A program made the translations under genes and the position numbers. Source: Candidatus Flavonifractor intestinigallinarum (GTDB lineage Bacteria > Bacillota > Clostridia > Oscillospirales > Oscillospiraceae). From it: DNA of 32,000 nucleotides. Within the stretch, counting starts at the first letter, position 1. Each line of letters begins with the position of its first letter. The DNA is taken from positions 8,356-40,355 of the forward strand of contig DWXO01000087.1 of the NCBI GenBank assembly GCA_019119165.1. Reading direction: 5' to 3'. Shown one piece after another: positions 7,514 through 21,854 of this stretch. The notes beneath the pieces are model-generated. The model saw only the letters and a program-made list of their open reading frames with translations. It was not told the DNA's origin and did not search any database.

Positions 7514-7556
7514 AAAAGGAAGCCTGTAACCGCAATGGTTACAGGCTTCCTTTTAT
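7514..7556. terminator. Bidirectional intrinsic terminator between convergent operons
   Basis: AAAAGGAAGCCTGTAACC, loop GCAAT, GGTTACAGGCTTCCTTTT. There is an A-run on one side and a T-run on the other, so it serves both strands. Confidence 0.85.
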
Positions 7557-7564
7557 TCTATTTT

Positions 7565-7789
7565 TCATGGCTGGTCCTGCCACAGGCGGCGGATCTCCCG
7601 CCCTTCAAGTCCCGTCAGATCGGCGCACTGGGCGGAGCAACCGCATACCACCAGCAGCTGGTCGTAGCAAACTCCGGGGATTGCCCCCTCGAAGGTATCC
7701 TCCTGCCGCTCCCTCCGGATGCGCTCCACCAGGGCCACCCGGTCATACCGGGGATTGCAGCCGCCGCAGTATTTCACTCCGACCCGCAC
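7565..7789 (-). CDS. Small Cys-rich protein (74 aa; CGGC...CGC..C), unknown function
   Basis: GTG start with GGGGAGAG 5 nt upstream. It overlaps the 3' end of the NifU-like gene by 16 nt (translational coupling). Motifs KYCGGCNPRYDR and VVCGCSAQC suggest metal or Fe-S binding. Any CGGC-domain resemblance is recollection only. Confidence 0.55.
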   Translation of the reverse strand: MRVGVKYCGGCNPRYDRVALVERIRRERQEDTFEGAIPGVCYDQLLVVCGCSAQCADLTGLEGREIRRLWQDQP

Positions 7790-8085
7790 GGACGCTCTCC
7801 CCGCAGGATCGCCCGGGCCTGATCCAGCAGTTCCTGGCTCACACCCCCCACCAGCACCACGTCCTTCAGCTCAGGGACAGATTCCAGCAGGGCGGAGCGG
7901 ATCAGGTTTTCCGTGGTCAGCATGGCGGAGGGACACCCGGCGCACTGGCCGGTGAGCTGAAAGCGGTACACCCCGTCCTTGCAGTCCAGGCTGCGGATGT
8001 TGCCGCCGTGAAGGGACAGATTGGGGCGCACCTTCTCCTCCAGAACCCCTTCGATCCGGTCCAGGATCTCACTGTGCTCAGACAC
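7774..8085 (-). CDS. NifU-like (Nfu-type) Fe-S cluster scaffold domain protein
   Basis: GTG start; the AAGGAG RBS lies in the last codons of abfD. The sequence ...VRPNLSLHGGNIRSLDCKDGVYRFQLTGQCAGCPSAMLTTENLIRSALLESVPE... has the Nfu C-terminal CxxC fold pattern. Confidence 0.75.
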   Translation of the reverse strand: MSEHSEILDRIEGVLEEKVRPNLSLHGGNIRSLDCKDGVYRFQLTGQCAGCPSAMLTTENLIRSALLESVPELKDVVLVGGVSQELLDQARAILRGERPCGSE

Positions 8086-8091
8086 CTTTTC

Positions 8092-9543
8092 TCACTCCTT
8101 GACGTGGGCGATCTTCTTGGCCAGTTCCTTCTTCATGGGCAGGTTGCCCTGGCGGGCGATCATGATGCGCTGAGCCTGGGGAGAGCCGGCGCCATGGAGG
8201 GACTCGGTACGGTAGCCCACGGCGGCGGTGCCCAGGGTCAGGTTCTCAATGAGGCGCAGGATGCGGAAGCGGTTCTCTACCGACACGCCGGGGGCGGCCT
8301 TGAAATACTTTTCCACATAGGGCCCCAGCTTGGGGTCCTTCAAATCGGCCTCGGCGGGGGCGGTGACCACCACGCCGCCGGCAATGTCCTCGGCCAGCCG
8401 GGCAATCTCATAGGGGAAGCGGGTGACGTTCTGCTTGCACACGTTGGCCAGCAGCAGGTCGATGATGTAGTTGCCGCTGGCGGTGGCGTGTCCCTCGGCG
8501 GAGCAAGCAATGCCGCAGCAGTACAGAGTCTCGTTCAGGTGGGTCATCTCAATGAGCTTATCCTTGATGTGGGATGCCTTGGCACAGCCGTTGTAGTCGG
8601 CGGCCACGGCGGCGGCGCCGATGAGCACGTCGCCCACGCCCACCTTGCACCCGCCGTAGCTCTGGCGGTGATAGCCGGCAAACCGCTCCACCAGCATCCC
8701 GGCGAATTCGGTCTCACCGCACATGAAGATGCGGTCGTTGGGCACAAACACGTCGTCAAAGACTACCAGGGCCTCCACGCCGCCAAACTCGGCATTGCCC
8801 ACGTCCAGCTCGCTGCCCTCCAGCTTCCGGGTGTCGCAGCTCTGGCGGCCGATGATCATGAAGATGCCCTCGGCGTCCATGGGTACGGCAAAGGACACAG
8901 CGTAGTCCTTGTCCTCCGGCCCCATGGAGATGGTGGGCATAATGATGATCTCATGGCTGTTCAGCGCGCCGGTCTGGTGGGCCTTGGCGCCCCGGACCAC
9001 AATGCCATCTGGGCGGCGCTCCACCACACGCAGGAACAGATCGGGATCCTCCTGCTCATGAGGAGCCTTGGACCGGTCACCCTTGGGGTCGGTCATGGCA
9101 CCGTCCACCGTCAGGTCGTGCTCCTGGACATAGGCGGCAAACTTCTTGAAATTCTCATGATAGCTGGTACCATACTTCTGGTCAATCTCGTAGGTGGTGG
9201 AATAGACGGCGTTGAAGGCGTCCATACCCACGCACCGCTGGAAGCAGGCGGCGGTCTGCTGACCCAGCAGCCGCTGCATCTTTACCTTCTTCACCAGGTC
9301 CTGGGCAGACTGGTGAATGTGGGTGAAGCGGTTGACCTGCTGGCCGGTCAGGTTGGAGGTGGCGGTCATCAGGTCCTGGTACTCCGGCTTCTGGGCCAGG
9401 TCATAGGTCATGCGCACGCTGTTCAGCGAGGGGCGGAGGATGGGATCGTCCACCGGATTCTCCACCTTCTTGCCAAACATATAGACCTGCATCTTCATAT
9501 TGCGGATGCTCTCAATGTACTGTTCCCCTGTCATCAGTGCCAT
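8092..9543 (-). CDS. abfD: 4-hydroxybutyryl-CoA dehydratase / vinylacetyl-CoA delta-isomerase
   Basis: Collinear along its full length with Clostridium aminobutyricum AbfD as I recall it. Shared blocks include KVKMQRLLGQQTAACFQRCVGMDAFNAV, DGAMTDPKGDRS, FAGYHRQSYGGCKVGVGDV, MTHLNETLYCCGIACSAEG, LLANVCKQNVTRFPYEI and GYRTESLHGAGSPQAQRIMIARQGN. Confidence 0.9.
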   Translation of the reverse strand: MALMTGEQYIESIRNMKMQVYMFGKKVENPVDDPILRPSLNSVRMTYDLAQKPEYQDLMTATSNLTGQQVNRFTHIHQSAQDLVKKVKMQRLLGQQTAACFQRCVGMDAFNAVYSTTYEIDQKYGTSYHENFKKFAAYVQEHDLTVDGAMTDPKGDRSKAPHEQEDPDLFLRVVERRPDGIVVRGAKAHQTGALNSHEIIIMPTISMGPEDKDYAVSFAVPMDAEGIFMIIGRQSCDTRKLEGSELDVGNAEFGGVEALVVFDDVFVPNDRIFMCGETEFAGMLVERFAGYHRQSYGGCKVGVGDVLIGAAAVAADYNGCAKASHIKDKLIEMTHLNETLYCCGIACSAEGHATASGNYIIDLLLANVCKQNVTRFPYEIARLAEDIAGGVVVTAPAEADLKDPKLGPYVEKYFKAAPGVSVENRFRILRLIENLTLGTAAVGYRTESLHGAGSPQAQRIMIARQGNLPMKKELAKKIAHVKE

Positions 9544-9562
9544 GTTGTTCCCTTCCTTTCTC

Positions 9563-10408
9563 TTACTTCAGGCTGAGGATCTCCCGGGCCTCGTCGGGGG
9601 TGGCAACCTTCTTGCCGAACTCCTCGATGACCCGGCGGGCCCGATCCACGAACTGGACGTTGCTCTCAGCCAGCACGCCCTTGGTGTACATCACGTTGTC
9701 CTCCATGCCCACACGGATGTGGCCGCCCAGGGCCACAGCGCCGTACAGCATGGTGAGGGCGGAGTGGCCCACGCCGAAGCAGCTCCAGGTGGAGCCGGGG
9801 CACAGGGACTCCATGGTCTCCTTCATAAAGATCAGGTTCTTCATGGTGCCCGGGATACCGTTGGCGCAGCCCATGCAGAACTGGAAGTGCAGCGGAGCCT
9901 TCAGCACGCCCTTTTTGAGGTAATACTGGGCATTGGCGATCATACCAGGATCAAAGGCCTCGATCTCCGGCTTGATGTGGTTGTCCTCCATGATCTTGCC
10001 CAGCTTCTCCAGGAAGGCGGGGGGATTGAGGAACAGGCCGGTGTGCATCCAGTTCATGGAACCGCAGTCATAGGAGGCCATCTCGGGACGCAGCTCCACA
10101 ATGTGCTCATAGCGGCACTCCTCGTTGGGGAAGGAGGCGGCGCCAGAGGTGGTCATATTCAGAATGATATCGCAGTCGGGATGGTTGCCCCGCAGCAGCT
10201 CCACCGTCTGACGGAATTTGTTTTTGTCCATGGCGCCGTTGCCTTCGTCGTCCCGCATATGGATATGGGCGATGGCGGCTCCCGCCTTCCAGCAGGCGTA
10301 GATGTCCTCCGCAATCTCCGCGGGGGTCATGGGCACGTTGGGGTTGTTCTCTTTCTTGGGCCACGCGCCGGTGGTGGCCACGGTAATAATGGTCTTGTCC
10401 TGGCTCAT
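9563..10408 (-). CDS. BKACE family enzyme (beta-keto acid cleavage enzyme, DUF849 / 3-keto-5-aminohexanoate cleavage enzyme-like)
   Basis: Typical BKACE features: N-terminus IITVATTG...PMTPAEIAEDIYACWKAGAAIAHIHMRDDEG, then NMTTSG and GGHIRVGMEDN. I chose the second ATG (10408) because AGGAGG is too close to the ATG at 10414. Confidence 0.85.
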   Translation of the reverse strand: MSQDKTIITVATTGAWPKKENNPNVPMTPAEIAEDIYACWKAGAAIAHIHMRDDEGNGAMDKNKFRQTVELLRGNHPDCDIILNMTTSGAASFPNEECRYEHIVELRPEMASYDCGSMNWMHTGLFLNPPAFLEKLGKIMEDNHIKPEIEAFDPGMIANAQYYLKKGVLKAPLHFQFCMGCANGIPGTMKNLIFMKETMESLCPGSTWSCFGVGHSALTMLYGAVALGGHIRVGMEDNVMYTKGVLAESNVQFVDRARRVIEEFGKKVATPDEAREILSLK

Positions 10409-10476
10409 TTCCATTCCTCCTTAATTCCTGATGTCCGCCCCCTCTGGGCCGGATCTCATAACAGCAAAATTAAAAA

Positions 10477-10492
10477 GCAAAACTCATGCCAA
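10477..10492 (-). promoter_or_regulatory. Sigma-54 (-24/-12) promoter for the BKACE-abfD-nifU-like operon
   Basis: The minus strand reads TTGGCATGAGTTTTGC. GG and GC are 12 nt apart as in the TGGCAC-N5-TTGC consensus. It lies about 70 nt upstream of the start codon. Confidence 0.8.
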
Positions 10493-10529
10493 TTTATTTT
10501 CACCCTTTTGGGCCGCTTTGCGCCGCCGC

Positions 10530-10589
10530 CATTGCATTTTGGAAACAGACCTCGCTTATTTTTCTATTCCCTGTTGCATACCTGCATCA
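10530..10589. promoter_or_regulatory. Pair of enhancer-like dyads (UAS) between divergent sigma-54 promoters
   Basis: CATTGC-ATTTTG-GAAACA (10530-10547) and TGTTGC-ATACCT-GCATCA (10572-10589). Both are variants of TGTTGC-N6-GCAACA, with centres 42 bp apart. Confidence 0.6.
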
Positions 10590-10637
10590 TCCGCCAATTT
10601 AACCGGGCGGTTTTATACAGAAACCAGCCAAGATTGT

Positions 10638-10653
10638 TGGCATCCGGCTTGCA
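10638..10653 (+). promoter_or_regulatory. Sigma-54 (-24/-12) promoter for the thiolase/alcohol dehydrogenase operon
   Basis: TGGCATCCGGCTTGCA, about 50 nt upstream of the ATG at 10704. Confidence 0.8.
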
Positions 10654-10703
10654 TAGTCTCTCTCCAGAATCCACCTCACCACTTTCAGAGAGGAGACATA
10701 CTT

Positions 10704-11882
10704 ATGAATCATGTTGCCATCGTTGCCGCCTGCCGCACCCCCATCGGGACCATCGGCGGCCAGTTCAAAACCCTCACCGCTCTGGACCTGTCTGTTCCGG
10801 TGATGCAGGCCCTGGTACAGCGCTCCGGCGTAGACCCCGCCCTCATTGATGATGTGATCTGGGGCTGTAACTACCAGCGCACCTATCTGGAGAACAACCT
10901 TGCCCGGGTGGCCGCCGTCAAGGCCGGTCTGCCCGACACCGTGCCCGGCATCACCGTCCACCGCAACTGCACCTCCTCCATGTCCTCCATTCAGCTGGGT
11001 TTCTATCAGATCATGGCGGGAGAGGCCAAGTGCATCATGGCCGGCGGCGCCGACTGCATGAGCGCCGCTCCCTTTATGGTGTTTGACGCCCGCTACGGCA
11101 AGAAATACGGCCACATGGAGCTGCGGGACTCCATGTGGGACTCCCTGACCAACCTGGGGGTGGGCCCCGCCATGGGCATCACCGCTGAGAACGTGGCCGA
11201 CGCCTACAACGTTACCCGGGAGGATATGGATCAGTACGCCCTCCGCTCCCAGCAGCGGGCCGCCGCTGCTATTGATGCGGGCAAGTTCGAGGAGGAGATC
11301 ATCCCCATCACCGTCCACGGCAGAAAGGGCGATACCGTCATTACCACCGACGAGCACGTCCGCCGGGACACCACCCTGGAGAAGCTGGCCAAGCTGAAGC
11401 CCACCTTCAAGGCCGATGGCCGGGTCACCGCCGGCAACTCCTCCGGCATGAACGACGCCTCCTCCGGCGTGCTGCTGATGGAGGAAGAGCTGGCCAAATC
11501 CCTGGGGCTGCCTGTGCTGGCCCGGGTGGTGGCCACCGCCACTACCGGCGTCTCCCCCGACCTGATGGGCATCGGCCCCATCAGCGCCACCCAGAAAACT
11601 CTGGAGAAGGCAGGCCTCACTGTGGCCGACATCGATCTCTTTGAGATCAACGAGGCCTTTGCCGCCCAGTGCGTGGCCTGCCAGCGCACCCTGGGCATTG
11701 ACGAGGACAAGCTGAACGTCAACGGCGGCGGCATCTCCCTGGGCCATCCCGTGGGCGCCACCGGCAGCCGTCTGGTGGTCACCCTGCTCCACGAGCTCAA
11801 GCGCCGGGGCGGCAGATACGGCCTGGCCACCCTGTGCGCCGGCGGCGGCATGGGTACCGCCGTCCTTATTGAGATGGCCTGA
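10704..11882 (+). CDS. Acetyl-CoA C-acetyltransferase (thiolase)
   Basis: Start at 10704 (GAGAGGAGA RBS). The upstream part of the track ORF covers the promoter region. Thiolase blocks: VAACRTPIG, NRNCTSSMSSI (nucleophile Cys), NEAFAAQ, GGGISLGHPVGATG, CAGGGMG. Confidence 0.9.
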   Translation: MNHVAIVAACRTPIGTIGGQFKTLTALDLSVPVMQALVQRSGVDPALIDDVIWGCNYQRTYLENNLARVAAVKAGLPDTVPGITVHRNCTSSMSSIQLGFYQIMAGEAKCIMAGGADCMSAAPFMVFDARYGKKYGHMELRDSMWDSLTNLGVGPAMGITAENVADAYNVTREDMDQYALRSQQRAAAAIDAGKFEEEIIPITVHGRKGDTVITTDEHVRRDTTLEKLAKLKPTFKADGRVTAGNSSGMNDASSGVLLMEEELAKSLGLPVLARVVATATTGVSPDLMGIGPISATQKTLEKAGLTVADIDLFEINEAFAAQCVACQRTLGIDEDKLNVNGGGISLGHPVGATGSRLVVTLLHELKRRGGRYGLATLCAGGGMGTAVLIEMA

Positions 11883-11896
11883 GCTTCGGTACGCCT

Positions 11897-13063
11897 ATGA
11901 AAGACTTTACATTTTCCTTCCCCACCCGGGTCATCTTCGGGCGGGATGCGGAGGGGCGGGCCGGGGAGCTGGCCGCCCCCTTCGGCCCCAATGTCATGGT
12001 TCTCTACGGCAGCGACCGCATCCGCCGCAGCGGCCTGCTGGACCGGCTCACCGCCGATCTGGAGAGCCACGGCCTGACGGTCACTCTGTTCGGAGGTATT
12101 CAGGAAAATCCCCTCCTCTCCAAGGCGGAGGAGGGGCGGCGGCTGGCCCGGGAGAAGAAGATCACCCTCCTGCTGGCCGTGGGCGGCGGCAGCGTCATTG
12201 ACACCGCCAAAGCCGTCAGTCTGGGGGCCAAAAGCACCGCGCCTCTCTGGGACATCTACTCCGGCAAGGGAAAAGCCCAAAAGGCCCTGCCCATCGGGGT
12301 GGTGCTCACCACCGCCGCCACCGCCAGCGAGGCCTACAGCGTATCGGTGCTCTGTCACGATGAGCTCCATTTAAAGGTAGCTCTGGAGGAGCCGCTGACC
12401 CGGCCCCGTTTCGCCCTGATGGACCCGGCCCTCACCTTCTCCCTACCCCCCCGGCAGACCGCCTCCTGCGGGGTGGACATCTTCTCCCACGCCTTTGAGC
12501 GCTACTTCCACAAGGGCCAGCAGGGTACCCTCCGCAGCCAGATGTGCGCCGCCGTGATGCGCACCGTTATCGCCGAACTGCCCAAGGCACTGGCCCATCC
12601 CGACGACTACGACGCCCGCAGTCAGCTCATGTGGGCCGCCACCGTGGCCCACAGCGATATGCTGGGGTTTGAGGGGGATTTCGCCTGTCACGCCATCTCC
12701 CACGTCCTCACCACCGCCCTGGGGCTCCCCCACGGCGTGGCTCTGGGCATTCTCATGACCGCCTGGTGCAAGTATATGCTCACCGATGAGACCCAGGCCA
12801 TTGCCGACTTCTCCACCCTGGTGTGGCAGGTCCCCCCCTGCTCCAGCCAGATCCAGACCGCTCAGAACGGCATCTCCGCCTTCCAGGAGTTTCTCTGCTC
12901 GGCGGGCCTGCCCGTTACCCTGCGGGAGGCCGGTTTCGGCAATGTCTCTCTGGAGGAGCTGGCCGGGCTGGCCCTCCCAGGCGGGGCCGGCACTCTGGGG
13001 GGGAATTTCCGCCCCCTGGATTACAGCGCGGTGCTGAGCTTGTTGCAGCTGGCCCGGGGTTAA
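11897..13063 (+). CDS. Iron-containing (group III) alcohol dehydrogenase, butanol dehydrogenase/YqhD-like
   Basis: F.FPTRVIFG start, the GGGSVIDTAKAV nucleotide loop, and His-rich metal site region (HAISHVL, PHGVALGI). Lies 14 nt after the thiolase gene. Confidence 0.85.
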   Translation: MKDFTFSFPTRVIFGRDAEGRAGELAAPFGPNVMVLYGSDRIRRSGLLDRLTADLESHGLTVTLFGGIQENPLLSKAEEGRRLAREKKITLLLAVGGGSVIDTAKAVSLGAKSTAPLWDIYSGKGKAQKALPIGVVLTTAATASEAYSVSVLCHDELHLKVALEEPLTRPRFALMDPALTFSLPPRQTASCGVDIFSHAFERYFHKGQQGTLRSQMCAAVMRTVIAELPKALAHPDDYDARSQLMWAATVAHSDMLGFEGDFACHAISHVLTTALGLPHGVALGILMTAWCKYMLTDETQAIADFSTLVWQVPPCSSQIQTAQNGISAFQEFLCSAGLPVTLREAGFGNVSLEELAGLALPGGAGTLGGNFRPLDYSAVLSLLQLARG

Positions 13064-13065
13064 GC

Positions 13066-13103
13066 TGTTGCAATTCGGAAATACCCATTGCCGCTGTGCA
13101 ACA
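13066..13103. promoter_or_regulatory. Pair of enhancer-like dyads upstream of the MFS gene
   Basis: TGTTGC-AATTCG-GAAATA (13066-13083) and CATTGC-CGCTGT-GCAACA (13086-13103). Centres 20 bp apart, about 70 bp upstream of the -24 element. Confidence 0.55.
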
Positions 13104-13163
13104 GGTAAGTACCTTTCCTCCCGCTCAGCGGGCAATTTTAACCCCATTTCCCTGTTTTTGTGT

Positions 13164-13179
13164 TGGCATCAGGATTGCT
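13164..13179 (+). promoter_or_regulatory. Sigma-54 (-24/-12) promoter for the MFS transporter
   Basis: TGGCATCAGGATTGCT. Confidence 0.8.
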
Positions 13180-13299
13180 TTTATTCTGTTTCGCTAAATC
13201 AAGTGCGGAGAGAGGAGGCACGTCTTGCAGCCGGAGCAAACCCGGCACAGCGCAGCCAACATCCACATCCTACAGCGCAAATGAGGAGTGAGTAAAACT

Positions 13300-14598
13300 A
13301 TGAGTAAAAAGAACCCCCAGATCGCCAGTGAAAACATGAAGATGAATTTCTCCAAAGGTTGGGGCATCATTCTCTACCAGGCTCTGATGTTCTTCTTCCT
13401 GATCGGTTTCTCCATCGACGGTCTGAACATCGTGGCTCCGGCCTTCTCCGAGGCCACCGGCGTAGACTACCCCAGCGTACTGAGTATGGCTACCGTGGCC
13501 GGCATGATCGGCGTGGTGGTTTACATCTTCATTGCCCGTATCAACGTGAAGGTGGGCGCCCGGCTGCTGTCCGGTGTGTGCCTCATCGGCGCCGGCGCCT
13601 CCTACATCTTCCTGGGCAACAGCAAGACTCTGGTGACCTACTGCATCGCCCTGACTCTGGTCACCTGCTTCATCAACGGCGCCGCCTATATCGCCGGCAA
13701 CACCCTGATCGCCCAGTGGTTCCCCAAGAAGAAGGGCCTGGCCAACGGCTTCACCACCATGGGCCACAACTGCGGCTCCGCCTTCTATGTGCCTCTGATC
13801 TCCTTCGCCATCGGCACCTTCGGCTTTGCCAGCGGCATGAGCTATGTGGCCATCGGCGCCATCGTGCTGGGCATCATCGGCCTACTTTTCGTCCGCAACA
13901 CCCCCCAGGAGTGCGGAATGTACCCCGACAACGTTACCAAGGAAGTGTATGAGCGGGAGTATTTCCAGGGCAACAGCGAGGACAACGGCGGCTGGACCGC
14001 GGGCAAGCTGCTCAAGACCCGTGAGCTGTGGCTGTGCGCCCTCATCATCGGCATCAACCAGCTGGTCACCACCGGCGTCATGAGCCAGCTGGTGGTCCGC
14101 AACACCAGCCTGGGCTTCTCCCAGGAGTCTGCCGTGGGCCTGATGACCGTGTGCGCCATCATCGGTGTGTGCGGCTCCTACCTCTTCGGCGCCATTGACC
14201 AGAAGTTCGGCGTCAAGAAGGCCATCATTCTCTTCCTCATCTGGTACTGCATCGCTCTGGCCGTCAACTGCACCGACACCACCATCGGCGTGTATGTGTC
14301 CGTGGCCATGATCGGCATCGCCGTGGGCGCCGCCGCCAACTTTATCGTGTCCCTGCCCGCTTCCGTGTTCGGCCGTCACGGCTTCACCATGGTGAACTCC
14401 GTGTTCTTCCCCCTGATGCAGATCGTGCTGATGACCAACTACCTGGTCAACGCCTTCGCGCTGAAGATCACCGGCAGCCTGCGGGGCGCCTACATCTTCT
14501 ACATCGGCCTGCTGGTGGTCAACATAATCCTCACCGCCGTGATCAACCCCACCAAGTACAACAAGGACGTGGCTACCGAGCAGGAGCTGCTGAAGTAA
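13300..14598 (+). CDS. MFS transporter (12-TM, oxalate/formate-antiporter-like subfamily guess)
   Basis: ATG at 13300 lies 12 nt after AGGAG; the GTG at 13288 abuts the RBS. The protein is hydrophobic throughout with two six-helix halves separated by a charged loop (PDNVTKEVYEREYFQGNSEDNGG). Confidence 0.85.
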   Translation: MSKKNPQIASENMKMNFSKGWGIILYQALMFFFLIGFSIDGLNIVAPAFSEATGVDYPSVLSMATVAGMIGVVVYIFIARINVKVGARLLSGVCLIGAGASYIFLGNSKTLVTYCIALTLVTCFINGAAYIAGNTLIAQWFPKKKGLANGFTTMGHNCGSAFYVPLISFAIGTFGFASGMSYVAIGAIVLGIIGLLFVRNTPQECGMYPDNVTKEVYEREYFQGNSEDNGGWTAGKLLKTRELWLCALIIGINQLVTTGVMSQLVVRNTSLGFSQESAVGLMTVCAIIGVCGSYLFGAIDQKFGVKKAIILFLIWYCIALAVNCTDTTIGVYVSVAMIGIAVGAAANFIVSLPASVFGRHGFTMVNSVFFPLMQIVLMTNYLVNAFALKITGSLRGAYIFYIGLLVVNIILTAVINPTKYNKDVATEQELLK

Positions 14599-14637
14599 GC
14601 TGATTCCATTCCCTTTCTATTCCATTTATATCCCTCT

Positions 14638-14681
14638 AAGCAGCAAGGCCCGCCGGAAGATTCCGGCGGGCCTTGCTGCTT
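14638..14681. terminator. Bidirectional terminator hairpin between the MFS gene and the activator gene
   Basis: AAGCAGCAAGGCCCGCCGGAAGATTCCGGCGGGCCTTGCTGCTT, a long perfect stem followed by ATTTG. Confidence 0.8.
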
Positions 14682-14688
14682 ATTTGAA

Positions 14689-16260
14689 TCAGCTTCTGCG
14701 GTTTTCATAGTCGATCTCGTACTGTTTGATCTTGCGGCAGATGGTGGAGGCGTTGATATTCAGCTTGCGGCTGGCGTCCCGCAGGTTAGAGGAGCCTTTC
14801 AGCACTTGCTCCAGGAGGCGCTTTTCAAAGTCCGCCACCGCTGTATTGAAGTCCACACCCTCGGCGGGCAGCTCAGGGGCGGGCTCCGGCCGGGGCGGCT
14901 CCGCCTTGGGAGCGGCGGGCTGGGGCTCGGGGATCTCCTCCGGCACGTTCAGCAGGCCGCGGAGCACGTCGTCCTCAATCCGGCCAATGCCGGAGCTGCA
15001 CAGGATCAGATACTCCATCACGTTTTCCAGTTCCCGGATGTTGCCCGGCCAGGAATAGCGCTTCATATAGTCGATCTGCCACTGAGTCAGGCTGAAGGTG
15101 CGGTCGTACTTCTTGGTAAAGCGGTCAATGAAGTACTCACACAGGTCCTCAAAGTCCTCGGTGCGCTGCCGCAGGGCGGGCACCGCAATGGGGATCACAT
15201 TGAGCCGGTAGTAGAGGTCCTGCCGGAAGGTGCCCTCCGACACCTTTTTCTTCAAATCCGCGTTGGTCAGGGCCAGAAAACGGATGTCCAGCTTGATGGG
15301 CCGGGTGCCGCCGATGCGGGTAATCTCCTGGGACTGGATGGCCCGCAGCAGCTTCACCTGCAGATCCATGGGCATATCCCCGATCTCATCCAGCATCAGG
15401 GTGCCGTGGTTGGCGTACTCAAAGAGGCCCACCTTGCCCTTGGCGTTGGCGCCGGTAAAGGCCCCCTTCTCATAGCCGAACAGCTCGGACTCCAGCAGGT
15501 GGCCCGGGATGGAGGCGCAGTTGATCTTCACATAGGGCTTGTCCCGGCGCAGACTGCGGCGGTAGATCTCGTCGGCCACCACCTCCTTGCCCACTCCCGA
15601 CTCGCCGGTGATGAGCACCGAGGCGTCGGTGGGCGCGATCCGGTCCAGCAGGGTATCGATCTGTTTCAGAGAGCCGTATTTTCCCACCATGCTGCCCGAC
15701 AGATGCTTGTCCGAATCCTTGCTGATGGTTCTGGGATGGATGGCGTTGACCTCCTTGACAAAGGCCTCGAAATCCTCCTGCAGGGAACTGAGGCTCATAA
15801 TGGGCCGGCTACAGGCCACCACCTGCCGCAGGCTGCCGTCCGGCTTGAAGATGGGGGTTCCCATCACATAGCCCACCAGGGGCTCCCCAGTTTTATAGGT
15901 GGTGGACAGGCGGAAGGCGCTCTTTTTGTTCTCCAGCACACTGGTCACCGCCCCGCCGGTAAAAAGCTTGTCCTCCCCGATCAGGGTGTGGATATCCCGG
16001 TTCAGGACCTCCTCCTCGGTGATCCCCGTATTGCGGGTATAGGCAGGATTGACATAGAGGACGGTCCCATCGGCATCCGTGATCATGATGCTGTCGTCCA
16101 GCCCGTCCACTACCTCTTTAAAGTCAATGCCCCGGTCATGGAAGGCCTGCAGGCGGTGATCGATCTCCTCCAGCTTGGCCACCAGCTCCGGGCGGTCACT
16201 CTCATCCATCACAAGCCGCAGCAGCTTTCTTACTTCTCTTATGGCGGAATATTGGTTCAT
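14689..16260 (-). CDS. Sigma-54-dependent transcriptional activator (PAS sensor - AAA+ - Fis-type HTH)
   Basis: Start at 16260 (GAGGAGGAG RBS). Domains in order: PAS-like (IMITDADGTVLYVNPAYTRNTGI), Walker A GESGVGKE, the sigma-54 contact loop GAFTGA, Walker B LDEIGDM, a Pro-rich linker, and C-terminal HTH (LRDASRKLNINASTICRKIKQYEI). Confidence 0.9.
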   Translation of the reverse strand: MNQYSAIREVRKLLRLVMDESDRPELVAKLEEIDHRLQAFHDRGIDFKEVVDGLDDSIMITDADGTVLYVNPAYTRNTGITEEEVLNRDIHTLIGEDKLFTGGAVTSVLENKKSAFRLSTTYKTGEPLVGYVMGTPIFKPDGSLRQVVACSRPIMSLSSLQEDFEAFVKEVNAIHPRTISKDSDKHLSGSMVGKYGSLKQIDTLLDRIAPTDASVLITGESGVGKEVVADEIYRRSLRRDKPYVKINCASIPGHLLESELFGYEKGAFTGANAKGKVGLFEYANHGTLMLDEIGDMPMDLQVKLLRAIQSQEITRIGGTRPIKLDIRFLALTNADLKKKVSEGTFRQDLYYRLNVIPIAVPALRQRTEDFEDLCEYFIDRFTKKYDRTFSLTQWQIDYMKRYSWPGNIRELENVMEYLILCSSGIGRIEDDVLRGLLNVPEEIPEPQPAAPKAEPPRPEPAPELPAEGVDFNTAVADFEKRLLEQVLKGSSNLRDASRKLNINASTICRKIKQYEIDYENRRS

Positions 16261-16321
16261 CGCGCTCCTCCTCACCGTTTCTGTCGGGCATTGTACCGGC
16301 ACGCAAGTGCCGCAAAGGGAT

Positions 16322-17188
16322 TTAAAAGGTCAGCTCCTTGATCTGGGCAATGCCCTCCCGCTGGACGCCCCTGGCATAGGGATACTCCGGATAGCCGAAC
16401 CCCAGAATCAAGCTGTAATACCGGTCTTTAGGAATTTGCAGCAGCTGTTCCACCTCCGGCATATGGGACAGAGCCCCCACCGGGTAGGACATAATGATGG
16501 ACCCCAGCCCGTGGGAGGCGCAGATCAGGTCAAACCAGGCCGCGGCCAGCACCGGGTCGGTCTGCCACTGACCTCTGCCCCGCTGGGAGTGGATCACCAG
16601 AATGTGGGGCGCGTTGACGAAGAACATATCGCCCGGGTTGCGGCCAGGCTCCCACTCCAGCTGCTTCTCCCAATCGCTTTTGGTGAAGGAACCGGGGTAG
16701 ATCCCCTGCTCCGCCAGCCGGAAGGCCTCCTCCCGCACCAGCTTGCGCAGCTTGTCCATCTCCGCCTTCCGGTACACCACGTTGAAGCCCAGAGTCTGCA
16801 AGTTGCTGCCGGTAGGCACGTTCTCCAGCAGCCGGAGCATCTGGTCGATCTCCTCCCGGGGCACCTCCCGGTCCTGATAGCGGCGGCAGGCCCGCCGGTT
16901 GCGCATCAGGGCCTCCAGCTGGCGGGCGTTGGCCCCCTCCTCGGGCAGCAGGGAGTCCTTGGGGTCCTTGTCAAAGATGGAAATGGCGCCGGTGGGGCAC
17001 ACCGCCAGACAGTGCTGGCAGCGATAGCAGCCGTCCCAGCCTGCCACGCCGTCGGCCTCCTCCTTCATTCTGGGGACTCCCTGCCCGTCAAAGTACAGGA
17101 TCACCGAAGAACAGGATGCAACGCACCTGCCGCAGTGGATACATTGATCCGGGTTTGCCTTGAAATGAAAGCTCTTCACCAGCTCCAC
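16322..17188 (-). CDS. 4Fe-4S dicluster ferredoxin domain fused to a nitroreductase-family flavoprotein
   Basis: N-terminal CIHCGRCVASC and CYRCQHCLAVCP motifs. The rest is nitroreductase-like (RRACRRYQDREVP...NVPTGSNLQ...). GTG start at 17188 or GTG at 17179; the exact start is uncertain. Confidence 0.8.
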   Translation of the reverse strand: MELVKSFHFKANPDQCIHCGRCVASCSSVILYFDGQGVPRMKEEADGVAGWDGCYRCQHCLAVCPTGAISIFDKDPKDSLLPEEGANARQLEALMRNRRACRRYQDREVPREEIDQMLRLLENVPTGSNLQTLGFNVVYRKAEMDKLRKLVREEAFRLAEQGIYPGSFTKSDWEKQLEWEPGRNPGDMFFVNAPHILVIHSQRGRGQWQTDPVLAAAWFDLICASHGLGSIIMSYPVGALSHMPEVEQLLQIPKDRYYSLILGFGYPEYPYARGVQREGIAQIKELTF

Positions 17189-17277
17189 GCTCCTTGTCGC
17201 TCCATTTGAGTAATCTCTATTATAGCCTGCTTGTCAACTCGATGTCTAATGGGCGCAGGCCTAACAAAAGGAATTAA

Positions 17278-17293
17278 GCAAATTGGATGCCAG
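17278..17293 (-). promoter_or_regulatory. Sigma-54 (-24/-12) promoter for the ferredoxin-nitroreductase gene (and probably the activator)
   Basis: The minus strand reads CTGGCATCCAATTTGC, about 90 nt upstream of the start. Confidence 0.8.
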
Positions 17294-17331
17294 CTTTATC
17301 CATATGATGCCGGCCCAATGTTGCCCTCGCC

Positions 17332-17392
17332 CATTGCATTTTTGCAACTTGTTGCCGATTCGCCTTCTGGGCGCTGTTGCTATTCCGCAACA
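17332..17392. promoter_or_regulatory. Pair of enhancer-like dyads between divergent sigma-54 promoters
   Basis: CATTGC-ATTTTT-GCAACT (17332-17349) and the perfect TGTTGC-TATTCC-GCAACA (17375-17392), centres 43 bp apart. Extra TGTTGC half-sites at 17319 and 17350. The layout matches 10530-10589. Confidence 0.65.
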
Positions 17393-17438
17393 TTCCCCGA
17401 TCATCCGGGAAAACAGGGCTGTTTTCCCCTGAAATTTT

Positions 17439-17454
17439 TGGCATGGGATTTGCA
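17439..17454 (+). promoter_or_regulatory. Sigma-54 (-24/-12) promoter for the 3-hydroxyacyl dehydrogenase gene
   Basis: TGGCATGGGATTTGCA. Confidence 0.8.
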
Positions 17455-17528
17455 TTATTCACAGGCAAGCACAATGTTGTCCGCGACAACCCAGCTGACA
17501 AAGATCAAAAAGAAATGAGGAATCAACC

Positions 17529-18434
17529 ATGGGCAAGATCAAAGCAGTGTTTGTTGGCACCGGCATGATCGGAGCCGGCCTGGCTGCCAACGCCATGCTG
17601 AACGGCTACGAGACCGTCCTCTACGATGTGGTCCCCCAGGAGAAGATGCGGGAGAACATCAGCCACATTCTGGACATTCTGGTGGAGGCGGGGGCCGCCA
17701 CCAGGGCCCAGGCCGACCAGGCTCTGGCCGACTGCCAGTTCTCCAACAACCTGGAGGAGGCGGTCAAGGGGGCTCACTTCGTGCAGGAGTGCATCCCCGA
17801 GCGGCTGGAGCTGAAAAAATCCACCTATGCCGCCATCCAGAAGGTGACCGGCCCCGACGCCGTCATTTGCAGCTCCACCTCCAAGCTCTTCCCCACCAAG
17901 CTGCAGGAGGACGCCCTCTATCCCCAGTCCATCCTGGTGGGCCACCCCTACAATCCCTCCTATCTGCTCCCCCTCATTGAACTGTGCGGCGGCGAGCAGA
18001 CCTCCCCGGAGGCCATCCAGCAGGCCAAGGAGATCTACACCGGCATGGGCAAGGTGGCGGTGGTCTGCAAGAAGGAGATCTACGGCTTCATCGTCAACCG
18101 CCTGTCCTGGGCCGCGCTGGAGGCCGCCAAAGAGTGCGTGCGCGACGGCGTCTGCTCCGTGGAGGATATGGACAAGGCCATCATGTTCGGCCCCGGTATG
18201 CGTATGGCGGTGACCGGCCAGCTGCTCACCATCAGCCTGGGTGTGGACGGCGGTTTCCGGGCCATCGCCGAGAAATACGGCGAGGAGCCCACCCCCTGGA
18301 ATGAGGTGTACGCCCAGGGCGTGGACGAGGAGATCGCCAACCGGGACCCCGCCATGGGCAACACGGTGGACGGCGTGTGCAAGTTCCGGGATCACGCCTT
18401 TGCGGAGCTGCTGAAGCTGCACAAGCTGCTCTGA
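17529..18434 (+). CDS. 3-hydroxyacyl-CoA dehydrogenase family protein (carnitine/gulonate 3-dehydrogenase-like; may act on a free beta-hydroxy acid)
   Basis: Rossmann loop VGTGMIGAGLA, ECIPERLELKK, GHPYNPSYLLPLIEL, and C-terminal dimerisation domain. GAGGAA RBS. Confidence 0.8.
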   Translation: MGKIKAVFVGTGMIGAGLAANAMLNGYETVLYDVVPQEKMRENISHILDILVEAGAATRAQADQALADCQFSNNLEEAVKGAHFVQECIPERLELKKSTYAAIQKVTGPDAVICSSTSKLFPTKLQEDALYPQSILVGHPYNPSYLLPLIELCGGEQTSPEAIQQAKEIYTGMGKVAVVCKKEIYGFIVNRLSWAALEAAKECVRDGVCSVEDMDKAIMFGPGMRMAVTGQLLTISLGVDGGFRAIAEKYGEEPTPWNEVYAQGVDEEIANRDPAMGNTVDGVCKFRDHAFAELLKLHKLL

Positions 18435-18454
18435 TCCCGCCCCAATCCGCCGGT

Positions 18455-18502
18455 TGTTTCATTTTTGCAACAGAGCATCTTGCTTGTGTCAGTTGCGCAA
18501 CA
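18455..18502. promoter_or_regulatory. Pair of enhancer-like dyads upstream of the DUF362 operon
   Basis: TGTTTC-ATTTTT-GCAACA (18455-18472) and TGTGTC-AGTTGC-GCAACA (18485-18502), centres 30 bp apart. Confidence 0.6.
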
Positions 18503-18552
18503 AAATTCCTCCGTTATTTTCCAAAAATCAGGCCGTTTACCCCAAAAATACT

Positions 18553-18568
18553 TGGCATTTGATTTGCA
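18553..18568 (+). promoter_or_regulatory. Sigma-54 (-24/-12) promoter for the DUF362/small protein/cyclase operon
   Basis: TGGCATTTGATTTGCA. Confidence 0.8.
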
Positions 18569-18620
18569 GTTATCATGAGTGTAATGAATGACACACCAAA
18601 TTCTGAAGGGAGAACTGAGT

Positions 18621-19907
18621 ATGTCTGACAAAAAAGCGCTGGTCGCTCTGGCCAAGGAGGCCAGCATCCAGGAGAGCGTCACCAAGGTCTTTGACCTGAT
18701 GGGCGGCGTCACCAACATGATCAAGCCCGGCACCACCGTAATGCTCAAGCCCAACGCCGGTCACGCCTCCCCCGCCGACACCTCCGTGTGTACCAACCCC
18801 GAGGTGGTTCGTGCCGTCATCCGTGAGGTCAAGAAGGCCAATCCCAAGAGCATCGTTATCGCTGAGGCCGCCGCCATCGGCTGCGATACCATGGAGTGCT
18901 ATGAGGTTTCCGGCATCGCCGACGTAGCCCGGGAGGAGGGCGTGGAGCTCTACGACATCAAGGCCGACAAGGACCTGATCAATGTAGCCGTCCGGGGCTA
19001 CCGCTCCAATCTGCACCACGTCAAGCTGCCCCGCCGTCTGCTGGAGGCCGACCACCTGATCAACCTGCCCATCCTGAAGGCCCACGCCAGCATGGTGTTC
19101 TCCTGCGCCCTGAAGAACATCAAGGGCGTGGTGCAGGACGCCGTCCACCTGCAGATGCACCAGCAGAATCTGACCATGGCCATGATGGACGTGTGGAGCG
19201 TCTGCCGGGCCGACATCAACATCGTGGACGCCATCCGTCCCGCCAGCGGCTACTCCCCCCACACCCCGGTGCCCATCGAGGTGGGCTGCATTCTGGGTTC
19301 CACCGACCCCGTGGCCGTGGACCTGATCGCCTGCGACCTGGTGGGCATCGACGCCGAGGCGGTGGACTACTTCCGGGTGGCCGCCGAGACCGGCCTGGGC
19401 ATCACCGAGCGGGAGGACATCGACGTGGTGGGCGCCTCCGTCAAGGACTGCTACAAGAAGATGTGGGTCCCCTACATTGGCGACATGAGCACCCGCTGGC
19501 CTGAGTACAAGGTGCTGTGCGACGGCGCCTGCTCCAGCTGCCAGGCCCTGCTGGCCATCAACATGGAGACGCTGAAGGCCATTGGCGACTACGAGCGCCG
19601 TTCCGATTTCGTGGTAGTGGCCGGCGGCAAGAACCAGATCCCCGCCGACGTGGACGACAAGAAGCTGGTGCTCCACGGCAACTGCACCCGCAAGTACCTG
19701 AAGGATCACCCCGACGCCATCCACATCGAGGGCTGCCCCCCCTCCGAGCCGCTGCTCTATATGTCCATCAGCAACGGCGAGCTGGTCCACGGCAAGGGCG
19801 GCCAGATGAGCGAGTACATCCGTCCCCGCATGGCCGCCGACCAGCCGGTGTGGCGCAAGTATGTGGAGGAGCAGGCCAAGAAGTTCTACGGCAGTCAGGA
19901 AGGTTGA
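18621..19907 (+). CDS. DUF362-like protein with a C-terminal Cys cluster (uncharacterised, possibly Fe-S/metal binding)
   Basis: Start at 18621 (GAAGGGAGA RBS). The track start 18588 would be almost leaderless relative to the sigma-54 promoter. The N-terminal pattern (VMLKPNAG...TNPEVVRAVIREV...IVIAEA) matches my memory of DUF362. C-terminal CDGACSSCQALL...HGNCTRKY...EGCPPSE. Confidence 0.6.
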   Translation: MSDKKALVALAKEASIQESVTKVFDLMGGVTNMIKPGTTVMLKPNAGHASPADTSVCTNPEVVRAVIREVKKANPKSIVIAEAAAIGCDTMECYEVSGIADVAREEGVELYDIKADKDLINVAVRGYRSNLHHVKLPRRLLEADHLINLPILKAHASMVFSCALKNIKGVVQDAVHLQMHQQNLTMAMMDVWSVCRADINIVDAIRPASGYSPHTPVPIEVGCILGSTDPVAVDLIACDLVGIDAEAVDYFRVAAETGLGITEREDIDVVGASVKDCYKKMWVPYIGDMSTRWPEYKVLCDGACSSCQALLAINMETLKAIGDYERRSDFVVVAGGKNQIPADVDDKKLVLHGNCTRKYLKDHPDAIHIEGCPPSEPLLYMSISNGELVHGKGGQMSEYIRPRMAADQPVWRKYVEEQAKKFYGSQEG

Positions 19908-19909
19908 CC

Positions 19910-20182
19910 ATGGCGTTTCAATATGTGGACTATCCCCAGGAGATGAAGGATCTGCTCAGCCGCATTTTCAGCGACGCTTTTATGCAGACCCATACCCGCT
20001 TCCAGTCCTTTGAGGGCTTCCGCTACTCCAGCGCGGTGTTCGTCAACTGGAATTCCGACCAGCTCATCTATAATGAGGCTCTGCTGGACCGCTTCGTCCA
20101 GGAAAGCACCCAGTTCTCCTCCTGGGAGGAGATGGTGCGTACCGCCGCCGACCAGTGCTTTCAGCCCGCCGTTTGTTCCTGA
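19910..20182 (+). CDS. Hypothetical 90-aa protein
   Basis: The ATG lies 2 nt after the DUF362 stop, with CAGGAAGG upstream. Codon usage is like its neighbours. It sits inside a longer track ORF (19517-20182) whose upstream part is an alternate frame of the DUF362 gene. No family recognised. Confidence 0.55.
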   Translation: MAFQYVDYPQEMKDLLSRIFSDAFMQTHTRFQSFEGFRYSSAVFVNWNSDQLIYNEALLDRFVQESTQFSSWEEMVRTAADQCFQPAVCS

Positions 20183-20227
20183 ATCCAGAGAATATCCATC
20201 CATTCTAAACGAAAAGGAGTTATCACT

Positions 20228-21046
20228 ATGAGCAAGACCGTTCTTGTAGACCTGTCTCACCCCTTCGGCCGGGGCAATCCCCTGTGGCCCTCCAACGGCG
20301 ATTTCCATATCGACCGCGTGCAGCATATGCCCATGCACTACCGTCTGCTGCAGACCTTTAACGACTTCCATATGCACAACTCCACCCACGCCGACTCCCC
20401 CTCCCACGTGATCCCCGAGGGCGCCTTCACCCATGAGCTGCCCCTGGAAAATTACTACGGCCCCGCCGTCTGCCTGGACATCCCCAAGAAGCACTGGGAG
20501 CTCATCACCGTGGAGGACATCGAAAAGGCCGCCGCCAAGGTGGAGGGCGGCATCCAGGAGGGCGACTGGGTGCTCATCTGCACCGGCATGAACAAGCGCT
20601 GGGGCGAGAATGACGACTACTTCATGTACTCCCCCGGTATGTCCATCGAGGGCGCCCACTGGCTGGTGGATCACAAGGTCAAGGGCGTGGGCTTCGACCT
20701 GCAGGCTCTGGACCACATCCTGTACACCTACGCCGCCCAGCACGGCCCCGGGCCCTACGTCCCCCGCATCGTGGACGAGTACAAGAAGGAGTTCGGCCAT
20801 GAGCCCCTGGAGGACTTCCCCGAGTGGGAGCCCGTCCACACCATCCTGCTGAGCAACAACGTCATGGGCATCGAGAACCTGGGCGGCGACATCGAGAAGG
20901 TCAAGGGTCAGCGCTTCACCTTCTGCGCCTTCCCCCTGCGCTGGTACATGGGCGACGGCACCATCGTCCGGGCCGTGGCCATGATCGACGAGGACAAGAT
21001 CAACAAGGACGTGCCCGACCGCGTCTACAAGTACGGCGTGTATTGA
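20228..21046 (+). CDS. Cyclase-family metal-dependent hydrolase (kynurenine formamidase / isatin hydrolase / dihydrophloroglucinol cyclohydrolase superfamily)
   Basis: Carries the diagnostic H-x-x-x-T-H-x-D-x-P-x-H motif as HMHNSTHADSPSH, in a ~270-aa protein. AAGGAG RBS. Confidence 0.8.
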   Translation: MSKTVLVDLSHPFGRGNPLWPSNGDFHIDRVQHMPMHYRLLQTFNDFHMHNSTHADSPSHVIPEGAFTHELPLENYYGPAVCLDIPKKHWELITVEDIEKAAAKVEGGIQEGDWVLICTGMNKRWGENDDYFMYSPGMSIEGAHWLVDHKVKGVGFDLQALDHILYTYAAQHGPGPYVPRIVDEYKKEFGHEPLEDFPEWEPVHTILLSNNVMGIENLGGDIEKVKGQRFTFCAFPLRWYMGDGTIVRAVAMIDEDKINKDVPDRVYKYGVY

Positions 21047-21554: not shown

Positions 21555-21840
21555 TTTTGTGGCCGCAGAGGAAGATTCGGGCGGCTGAACAAGGGAATCG
21601 GGTGAGAATCCCGGACGGTAACCGCCGCTGTATGCGTGATGTCCGCTGCTCGTCAACGAAAGTTCGCCATTGGGGACGTGCCCTGAGAAGGCAGAGCAGA
21701 CCGGCGAAGGCAGGAATACCCTGCCCCAAGCGCAAGTCAGAAGACCTACAAAAAGAGACCGGCCAGGTGTGGGACGCTGCACTTGGCATTCGTTACGCAG
21801 AAAAACGGCTGTGGATCTCAGGATCCGCAGCCGTTTTTTC
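21555..21840 (+). promoter_or_regulatory. Cobalamin (B12) riboswitch with terminator expression platform
   Basis: Conserved core AAGGGAATCGGGTGAGAATCCCGGACGGTAACCGCCGCTGTA (21591-21632) and B12 box AAGTCAGAAGACC (21734-21746). Outer pairing GGCCG/CGGCC. Terminator ACGGCTGTGGATC-TCAG-GATCCGCAGCCGT plus a T run (21805-21839), immediately before the RBS/ATG at 21855. Confidence 0.85.
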
Positions 21841-21854
21841 AGGGAGGGATAGGA

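Follow-up and report, generated by a model that had tools for sequence, protein, structure and literature searches.

A 32,000-nt stretch of the metagenome-assembled genome (MAG) of Candidatus Flavonifractor intestinigallinarum (assembly GCA_019119165.1, contig DWXO01000087.1, forward strand 8,356-40,355), called the window below and numbered from its own first letter, carries four adjacent minus-strand genes at 7565-10414. They encode a beta-keto acid cleavage enzyme (BKACE), the 4-hydroxybutyryl-CoA dehydratase AbfD, a NifU-like protein and a small cysteine-rich protein (Cys protein). An original prediction, made from the letters of this stretch, had placed these four genes here, and the analysis bears this out. 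The genes and the signals at their two ends are as follows:

10476..10491, minus strand: sigma-54 promoter of the BKACE-abfD-nifU-AF_0334 operon (motif scan)
9563..10414, minus strand: BKACE, paralogue of the triacetate acetoacetate-lyase (TAL) type, 283 aa (PF05853, also called DUF849, E 1e-104, profile positions 1-274 of 274)
8092..9543, minus strand: AbfD, 4-hydroxybutyryl-CoA dehydratase / vinylacetyl-CoA isomerase, 483 aa (HpaB_N and HpaB; 820 bits, E 7e-246, to the Clostridium aminobutyricum enzyme, PDB 1U8V)
7774..8085, minus strand: Nfu/NifU-like single-domain protein, 103 aa, GTG start (PF01106, E 2e-18, profile positions 1-67 of 67)
7565..7789, minus strand: 74-aa Cys protein of the AF_0334 family (PF27236)
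7514..7554, no strand: hairpin with a 19-bp stem, a likely bidirectional terminator between the convergent operon and ABC-2 permease gene (terminator scan)

The junctions between the genes were read directly and are tight, as predicted: BKACE and abfD are separated by a 19-nt gap that holds the purine-rich ribosome-binding site GAAAGGAAGGG, abfD and the NifU-like gene by a 6-nt gap (the AAGGAG ahead of the NifU-like GTG start lies within the end of abfD), and the NifU-like and Cys genes share 16 nt. A sigma-54 promoter (TGGCAT-N5-TTGCT, 10491-10476) stands 62 nt 5' of the BKACE start, the hairpin lies directly 3' of the Cys gene, and within the four genes the terminator scan gave no site of terminator type on the minus strand. 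With a promoter ahead, a hairpin behind, tight junctions and no internal terminator, the predicted co-transcription of the four genes as one operon is well supported.

This operon does not stand by itself. The window holds six copies of the strict sigma-54 pattern used in the scan, TGGCAY-N5-TTGCW (chance expectation 0.08), and the whole 2.29-Mb assembly only eight, the other two being on contigs C7 and C40. The six sites in the window head six transcription units that together make up a 13.5-kb island (7565-21046), and the genome also encodes a PAS-Sigma54_activat-HTH_8 protein (14689-16302, within the island) and an rpoN homologue (on contig C22). The original prediction had the operon right and missed this context, in particular the C-C hydrolase of the cyclase family, the 3-hydroxyacid dehydrogenase and the conserved thiolase. 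The five further units of the island are:

10638..10653, plus strand: sigma-54 promoter of the divergent unit formed by the next two genes (motif scan)
10704..11882, plus strand: thiolase (Pfam, NCBIfam)
11897..13063, plus strand: Fe-dependent alcohol dehydrogenase (FeADH), closest to YqhD and not a canonical 4-hydroxybutyrate dehydrogenase (4hbD) (Pfam, NCBIfam)
13164..14598, plus strand: sigma-54 promoter (13164-13179) and MFS transporter (13288-14598) (Pfam, motif scan)
14689..17292, minus strand: sigma-54 promoter (17277-17292), ferredoxin-nitroreductase fusion (16322-17188) and PAS-AAA+-HTH sigma-54 activator (14689-16302) (Pfam, motif scan)
17439..18434, plus strand: sigma-54 promoter (17439-17454) and enzyme of the 3-hydroxyacyl-CoA-dehydrogenase (3HCDH) family (17529-18434), closest to carnitine dehydrogenases (Pfam, NCBIfam, motif scan)
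18553..21046, plus strand: sigma-54 promoter (18553-18568), DUF362 protein (18588-19907), a stretch at 19908-20227 and a cyclase-family metal hydrolase, "cyclase-prime" (20228-21046) (Pfam, motif scan)

The stretch at 19908-20227 is overlapped by a long open reading frame (19517-20182) for which no Pfam match was found. DUF362 has been placed in the LarA clan by the literature, and no solved structural relative of it was found. None of the NCBIfam models for PGR, DPGC or TfD matched. The genome's other contigs hold a canonical phloroglucinol cluster (C12:140-5864, locus L007), in which an SDR reductase, a 3HCDH, a DPGC-type cyclase, a TAL-type BKACE and an MFS transporter are encoded in one direction, and it has the same composition as the characterised cluster of C. 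scatologenes, which encodes PGR, DPGC, TfD and TAL (Zhou et al. 2023, PMC10470551). The island cyclase is 36% identical to the DPGC-type cyclase of that cluster and keeps its metal motif; the DPGC substrate-contact residue Tyr22 is replaced by Ser, and two DPGC insertions are absent. The island MFS transporter is 45% identical to that of the canonical cluster. From these gene-by-gene likenesses the whole island looks like a paralogue of the anaerobic phloroglucinol pathway, in which the thiolase could stand between BKACE and AbfD.

The BKACE is the clearest case of this paralogy. The genome holds four BKACE genes, one in the window and one each on contigs C12, C22 and C46, and the window enzyme is 85% identical to the copy in the C12 phloroglucinol cluster. 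His50, His52 and Glu238, its presumed Zn ligands, do not vary across an alignment of five paralogues and align with those of the lysine-fermentation enzyme Kce, which we take to be His46, His48 and Glu230. At the position of Kce Glu14 the window BKACE has Trp18; the C12 copy also has Trp, the C22 copy has Glu, and the C46 copy and that of a related locus (L054, below) have Val. Replacement of this Glu by Trp is the feature used to recognise TAL (Zhou et al. 2023, PMC10470551), and by these marks the window BKACE is a duplicate of the genome's TAL type. Is it then simply a second TAL? The two copies differ at 41 positions, 12 of which fall in residues 92-107 (hypergeometric P = 3e-8), and at ten positions the two AbfD-linked Flavonifractor BKACEs (the window copy and that of locus L012) differ from four phloroglucinol-cluster TALs of three genera, the changes including D92A, K106V and the insertion of Phe95. 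If a TAL loop is defined by Asp92, no insertion and Lys106 (our own definition from these four sequences, not a published one), both AbfD-linked copies depart from it, with Ala92, Phe95 and Val106. This loop follows the TTSG motif, and residue 92 comes four places behind the Thr aligned to Kce Ser82, which is presumably an active-site residue. Because the differences cluster in one loop beside an active-site motif, they suggest that the substrate of the window BKACE changed after the duplication, while Trp18 and the 85% identity to TAL indicate an ancestry that points to a 3,5-dioxo-acid rather than 6-hydroxy-3-oxohexanoate as substrate.

The original prediction had named specificity for 3-keto-5-aminohexanoate or dehydrocarnitine as the finding that would speak against it. 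This case does not apply: the reading as a Kce or dehydrocarnitine enzyme is rejected by Trp18, by NCBIfam scores that stay under the curated thresholds of the equivalogs for Kce (298 bits for NF052387, whose threshold is 382), 3-oxoadipate and dioxohexanoate, and by the presence of a separate, Glu-bearing Kce-type copy on C22. A specificity that arose de novo does not apply either. That copy (C22:36416-37234) is the likely lysine-fermentation Kce and lies ~6 kb from the rpoN homologue (C22:29213-30589). The Val-bearing copy (C46:27161-28045) has AtoDA-type CoA-transferase genes, a thiolase gene and a 3HCDH gene in its vicinity.

The island recurs elsewhere. A comparison set of 80 abfD loci was assembled, with AbfDs 77-99% identical to the window AbfD and with neighbours counted within the fetched flanks of each locus. 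Five further loci in it carry the island cyclase (71-100% identical), together with a thiolase (73-86%; 77% in L032 and 86% in L012) and a 3HCDH. They come from a Flavonifractor MAG (L012), Catenibacillus (L032), Eubacterium sp. (L043), a Bacillota MAG (L054) and a Lachnospiraceae MAG (L086). A related FeADH is found in four of the five (49-79% identical to the window FeADH) and DUF362 in three, and the activators of L032 and L086 are 59-60% identical to that of the window. The BKACE gene lies directly 5' of abfD in two unrelated BKACE lineages, one made up of the window and L012 and the other of L054, whose BKACE appears to have been recruited independently since it is only 48% identical to the window copy and has Val at the Glu14 position. 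Every one of the six island genomes has a BKACE, versus 41 of 399 sampled Clostridia genomes, and canonical DPGC is present in five of the six. Few genomes hold the island cyclase itself: it turned up in 2-3 of 301 sampled Oscillospiraceae genomes and in 1 of 400 from other Clostridia, and a search of two further genomes from this genus gave no match at E <= 1e-60.

The versions of the island differ in their accessory genes. L012 is without the MFS, DUF362 and ferredoxin-nitroreductase genes, and at L012:11900-17020 two copies of the island cyclase (~93% nucleotide identity to that of the window) flank genes for a TRAP transporter (DctP, DctQ, DctM). L054 adds an OYE-type reductase, a Zn-dependent alcohol dehydrogenase and an acetoacetyl-CoA-synthetase-like ligase, the last of which fits acetoacetate as a by-product. 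The Lachnospiraceae versions have their own rpoN inside the island next to abfD (L032:11567-13012 and L086:8043-9485). At L043:12319-16257 genes for a CaiC-type acyl-CoA ligase, LuxE and LuxC follow abfD-nifU-Cys, with the island cyclase, 3HCDH, thiolase and FeADH at the same locus; this CaiC-LuxE-LuxC group corresponds to acp-caiC-luxEC, a unit of the XanR regulon as published. The single cyclase-bearing genome among the 400 other Clostridia (G330) has a cyclase fragment (C11:9469-9981, 81% identical over residues 5-175) and a BKACE gene with three stop codons (C2:91328-91919), and may hold a decaying copy of the pathway.

What does AbfD itself tell us about the substrate? The abfD gene is single-copy, being the sole HpaB_N-family gene in the assembly. 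Its alignment to 1U8V shows the cluster ligands (CxxxC, H...C) and the equivalents of Y296, E257, E455, T190 and K300 to be conserved; in 1U8V numbering we take the [4Fe-4S] ligands to be Cys99, Cys103, His292 and Cys299 and the catalytic residues to include Tyr296, Glu257, Glu455 and Thr190. The predicted orthology to the GABA-fermentation enzyme is supported by this alignment and these residues. At about residues 398-405 of the window AbfD (window 8330-8360), apparently in a surface loop, eight residues of 1U8V are lacking. A specialised AbfD was considered and rejected: no alignment column is common to at least five of the six island AbfDs and rare in 54 AbfT-linked AbfDs, and in a quick maximum-likelihood tree the six are polyphyletic, falling in at least four separate places among the canonical AbfDs of their own taxa (at least four changes on the tree). 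To judge from these comparisons AbfD is a standard 4-hydroxybutyryl-CoA dehydratase, and because it is indistinguishable from canonical AbfDs the simplest reading is that its substrate is ordinary 4-hydroxybutyryl-CoA. The polyphyly of the island AbfDs also means that the island joined abfD repeatedly, at least four times independently.

In canonical clusters the CoA ester is supplied by the CoA-transferase AbfT. The original prediction saw no transferase of this AbfT/Cat2 type in the window, and none was found there or anywhere in the assembly by a PF13336 search and by tblastn with the AbfT of locus L033, although the MAG is 86% complete, so the absence of a gene from the genome is unproven. 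Across the comparison set, AbfT is present in 55 of the 75 abfD loci without the island cyclase and in none of the five with it, and canonical 4hbD is likewise missing from all five. In the window, too, neither gene neighbours abfD, and the FeADH is only 26% identical to canonical 4hbD. A co-regulated CoA-transferase elsewhere in the genome was considered and set aside: only two further strict sigma-54 motifs exist in the assembly, on C7 and C40 (the DNA downstream of both was left unannotated), and no AbfT was found. Two AtoDA-type (family I) CoA-transferase gene pairs lie on other contigs, C46 and C61.

The two small proteins follow AbfD, not BKACE. A NifU-like gene is beside abfD in 69 of the 80 loci and a Cys gene in 56, usually in the order abfD-nifU-Cys, and the CxxC motif of the NifU-like protein (C48, C51) is invariant in 71 homologues. 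The Cys protein had no match in the Pfam version scanned, which lacks the model for PF27236 (a Pfam 38.1 family); it was assigned to AF_0334 through its atlas cluster, 100% of whose members carry PF27236. AF_0334 is a recently defined Pfam family of hypothetical proteins, and 644 database matches were obtained at E <= 0.001; all those listed carry PF27236 and most of those with a name are called "hypothetical", a few JGI records having names apparently copied from neighbouring genes. In the pattern CGGCN...R...(C)GC...C five positions of the Cys motif never vary, and conservation of Cys49 is 90% or higher. The linkage was also examined in reverse: AF_0334 occurs in 7 of the 399 sampled Clostridia genomes, and all six copies in five other genomes have an AbfD homologue 41-377 bp away, these homologues including two AbfD paralogues that are 59-60% identical. 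The predicted fold of the Cys protein is confident (pLDDT 90); a Foldseek search of its model against the PDB gave nothing at E <= 0.001, and VIA-align gave generic flavodoxin-like matches only (Z <= 5.2).

The above counts tie the NifU-like protein and AF_0334 to AbfD genetically in both directions, strongly and with or without a BKACE. The original prediction, which saw in the two small proteins dedicated cluster delivery or repair factors, is upheld as to their tie to AbfD, while the two accompany AbfD in general and are not peculiar to loci with a BKACE. They seem to be accessory factors specific to AbfD, and their motifs, together with the labile cluster of AbfD, would fit a role in Fe-S cluster delivery or repair.

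Taken together, these observations lead to a reading that we hold at roughly even confidence: the sigma-54 island is a paralogue of the phloroglucinol pathway that feeds AbfD through BKACE, with or without the thiolase, instead of through AbfT, and the two small proteins are accessory factors of AbfD. The steps may run as follows. A phloroglucinol-related cyclic beta-dicarbonyl compound would enter by the MFS transporter (by the TRAP transporter in the sister genome), its ring would be opened by the cyclase-family metal hydrolase, and the resulting 3-hydroxy acid would be oxidised to a beta-keto acid by the 3-hydroxyacid dehydrogenase. BKACE, with acetyl-CoA, would then cleave the beta-keto acid to acetoacetate and an acyl-CoA, its Claisen-type transfer taking the place of the AbfT CoA-transferase; since free acid would become CoA ester without a CoA-transferase, this would explain why AbfT is dispensable. 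What is left, directly or after one thiolase round, would be a 4-hydroxyacyl-CoA, of which 4-hydroxybutyryl-CoA is the simplest candidate, and AbfD would dehydrate it to an enoyl-CoA (crotonyl-CoA) that enters butyrate/acetate fermentation. The FeADH may reduce a ring carbonyl or an aldehyde, and the NifU-like protein and AF_0334 would most plausibly insert or repair the oxygen-labile [4Fe-4S] cluster of AbfD. In most island genomes the reductase, and sometimes the TAL, would probably be borrowed from the canonical phloroglucinol cluster.

Which ring could yield such a product? By known reactions, a ring with a substituent R between two oxygens would give R-CH2-CO-SCoA. With R = 2-hydroxyethyl the candidate product is 4-hydroxybutyryl-CoA, and we know of no abundant natural precursor for this scheme; with R = 2-hydroxy-3-arylpropyl, as in the catechin-derived diarylpropan-2-ols, the candidate is the CoA ester of 4-hydroxy-5-arylvalerate, which Flavonifractor is known to produce. 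Among the other compounds worked through on paper (resorcinol, pyrogallol, hydroxyhydroquinone, gallate, lactones and lactams), none gives a 4-hydroxybutyryl unit by retro-Claisen opening and BKACE cleavage without an extra assumption.

Several points weigh against this feeding of AbfD by the island. Retro-Claisen opening of an unsubstituted six-membered 1,3-dione would give a 5-oxo acid and not a 6-hydroxy acid, so that 4-hydroxybutyryl-CoA would require a substituted ring or so far unseen chemistry. Three of the sister clusters (L032, L043 and L086) have no BKACE of their own and would have to borrow another from their genome, which makes BKACE a non-obligatory in-cluster partner of AbfD; the BKACEs found elsewhere in sister genomes are a phloroglucinol-cluster TAL in two (G001, G002) and a 48%-identical, thiolase-linked BKACE in a third (G003). 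The AMP-forming ligases of L054 and L043 could activate a free 4-hydroxy acid, and the incompleteness of the MAG and the family-I CoA-transferases elsewhere in the genome weaken the argument from the missing AbfT. Finally, a XanR-type sigma-54 regulon has already been predicted for abfD (PMC6615313), and a shared regulator could explain part of the linkage. Carried further, this last point gives a rival explanation in which there is no coupling at all: BKACE would be a second TAL for phloroglucinol/triacetate, abfD-nifU-AF_0334 an ordinary 4-hydroxybutyrate/succinate-to-butyrate module whose 4-hydroxybutyrate is activated by a family-I CoA-transferase or ligase encoded elsewhere, and the XanR-type activator the only thing that joins them. 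The 85% identity of BKACE to TAL, the earlier assignment of abfD-nifU-hyp to the XanR regulon (PMC6615313), the AtoDA-type transferases on C46 and C61 and the ligases of L054 and L043 would all fit. Such an explanation, however, leaves unaccounted for that none of the five sister loci has AbfT or canonical 4hbD when AbfT is found in 55 of the 75 others, that the linkage arose at least four times, that this genome (an 86% complete MAG) has no other abfD and no AbfT, and that the differences from TAL cluster in one loop and are not spread evenly; nor does any other strict-motif sigma-54 unit lie beside a transferase, although the DNA downstream of the C7 and C40 sites was left unannotated. We regard the absence of any coupling as distinctly improbable.

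Coupling could also be more direct than in our preferred reading. The original prediction proposed that BKACE cleaves 6-hydroxy-3-oxohexanoate to 4-hydroxybutyryl-CoA and acetoacetate and that AbfD takes this product, the thiolase then doing no more than recycling acetoacetyl-CoA. The position of BKACE immediately 5' of abfD in two independent BKACE lineages, the resemblance of AbfD to the normal 4-hydroxybutyryl-CoA enzyme, and a YqhD-like FeADH that could form the 6-hydroxyl from an aldehyde would agree with it; the remodelled loop after TTSG with its loss of the TAL-conserved Asp92, and a 3-hydroxypropyl side chain about the size of the acetonyl group of triacetate, make such a substrate conceivable. 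The TAL ancestry of the enzyme, with its retained hallmark Trp18 and 85% identity, speaks against it, as do the three sister clusters without an in-cluster BKACE and the lack of a plausible ring precursor: by analogy with DPGC (PMC10470551), retro-Claisen opening by a metal hydrolase would give a C5 methyl ketone with no oxygen at C6. This route is not described in the literature searched, and we consider it unlikely, if still worth bearing in mind. A different substrate altogether is supposed in an alternative where the island breaks down 2-(2-hydroxyalkyl)phloroglucinols, chiefly the 1-aryl-3-(2,4,6-trihydroxyphenyl)propan-2-ols made from catechins by Eggerthellaceae. Through ring reduction, hydrolysis by the cyclase, oxidation, cleavage by BKACE and thiolysis these would be turned into 4-hydroxy-5-arylvaleryl-CoA, which would lactonise to phenyl-gamma-valerolactone or be dehydrated by AbfD towards phenylvaleric and phenylpropionic acids. 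The carbon bookkeeping gives exactly the CoA ester of a Flavonifractor product (products: PMC13620794), Ser in place of Tyr22 and the two missing DPGC insertions suggest a roomier cyclase site, a dedicated thiolase is conserved, and the host is Flavonifractor-like with a sister cluster in Catenibacillus. Yet a bulky secondary-alcohol substrate is unexpected for AbfDs that are polyphyletic and without a specificity signature, the island cyclase is rare among Oscillospiraceae (the 2-3 of 301 above) even though F. plautii strains perform A-ring fission, and the TRAP transporter of L012 hints at an anionic substrate. We think this substrate very doubtful; equally doubtful is its extension, that the island is the missing gut-bacterial route for flavan-3-ol A-ring fission products, in which phenyl-gamma-valerolactones would form from 4-hydroxy-5-arylvaleryl-CoA by spontaneous lactonisation and AbfD would carry out the hitherto unassigned 4-dehydroxylation, with the NifU-like protein and AF_0334 as its maturation factors.

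Away from the island, the window encodes at 458-2200 an ECF-type sigma factor (regions 2 and 4) fused to ~400 residues with a weak leucine-rich-repeat match, and at 21783-22859 a 358-aa protein with four HNH_repeat (PF18780) units, which is followed by an Opp/Nik-type ABC importer; one gene of this importer (23825-26284) is a permease fused to a family-5 solute-binding protein.

If the preferred reading, in which the island feeds AbfD through BKACE, is correct, a radical [4Fe-4S]/FAD enzyme of butyrate formation would be fed from plant-polyphenol ring cleavage with BKACE performing the CoA activation, and gut Clostridia would have a second phloroglucinol-type pathway, one tied to butyrate. The island is in any case a concrete gene set for unassigned steps of dietary polyphenol breakdown, and the near-obligate abfD-nifU-AF_0334 triad supplies two candidate AbfD helper proteins independently of the pathway. 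AbfD is oxygen-labile, and there is demand for it in engineered pathways of 4-hydroxybutyrate and of CO2 fixation (for the latter, PMC13288912 and PMC10249356). A literature search covering BKACE with AbfD, AbfD with NifU, and follow-ups of the phloroglucinol enzymes returned no description of the cluster; its parts are all of known families, and the literature searched holds no account of their fusion, with a remodelled TAL ahead of abfD and AbfT lost.

Set beside known systems, the window BKACE shares with Kce its fold family and its Zn ligands (208 bits) and differs in having Trp where Kce has Glu14, the residue that binds the 5-amino group. The NifU-like protein resembles the Nfu-type Fe-S carriers (the NifU C-terminal domain, NfuA) in being a single NifU C-terminal domain with a CxxC motif, but it is free-standing, has no IscU-type scaffold or A-type domain, and is genetically fixed to abfD; no published experiment on it was found. 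Like the C. scatologenes phloroglucinol pathway, the island has a cyclase-family metal hydrolase, a 3HCDH-family dehydrogenase, a Trp-type BKACE, a thiolase, an MFS transporter and one regulator. Unlike that pathway, it is without an SDR-type phloroglucinol reductase, its cyclase and dehydrogenase are only 36% and 28% identical, respectively, to the canonical copies, and the loop of its BKACE is remodelled with loss of Asp92; it adds AbfD, the NifU-like protein, AF_0334, the YqhD-like FeADH, the ferredoxin-nitroreductase and DUF362, and it is under sigma-54 control. XanR has been predicted to control abfD-nifU-hyp-ach-golB (Nie et al. 2019, PMC6615313), and with these and the canonical abfD-abfT-4hbD clusters the island has in common an AbfD with the full set of catalytic residues, followed by the NifU-like protein and AF_0334, as well as a sigma-54 promoter and a PAS-AAA+ activator. 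It differs from them in being without AbfT (ach) and canonical 4hbD (golB); in the island a BKACE gene precedes abfD, and the remainder of the regulon is taken up by ring-cleavage genes.

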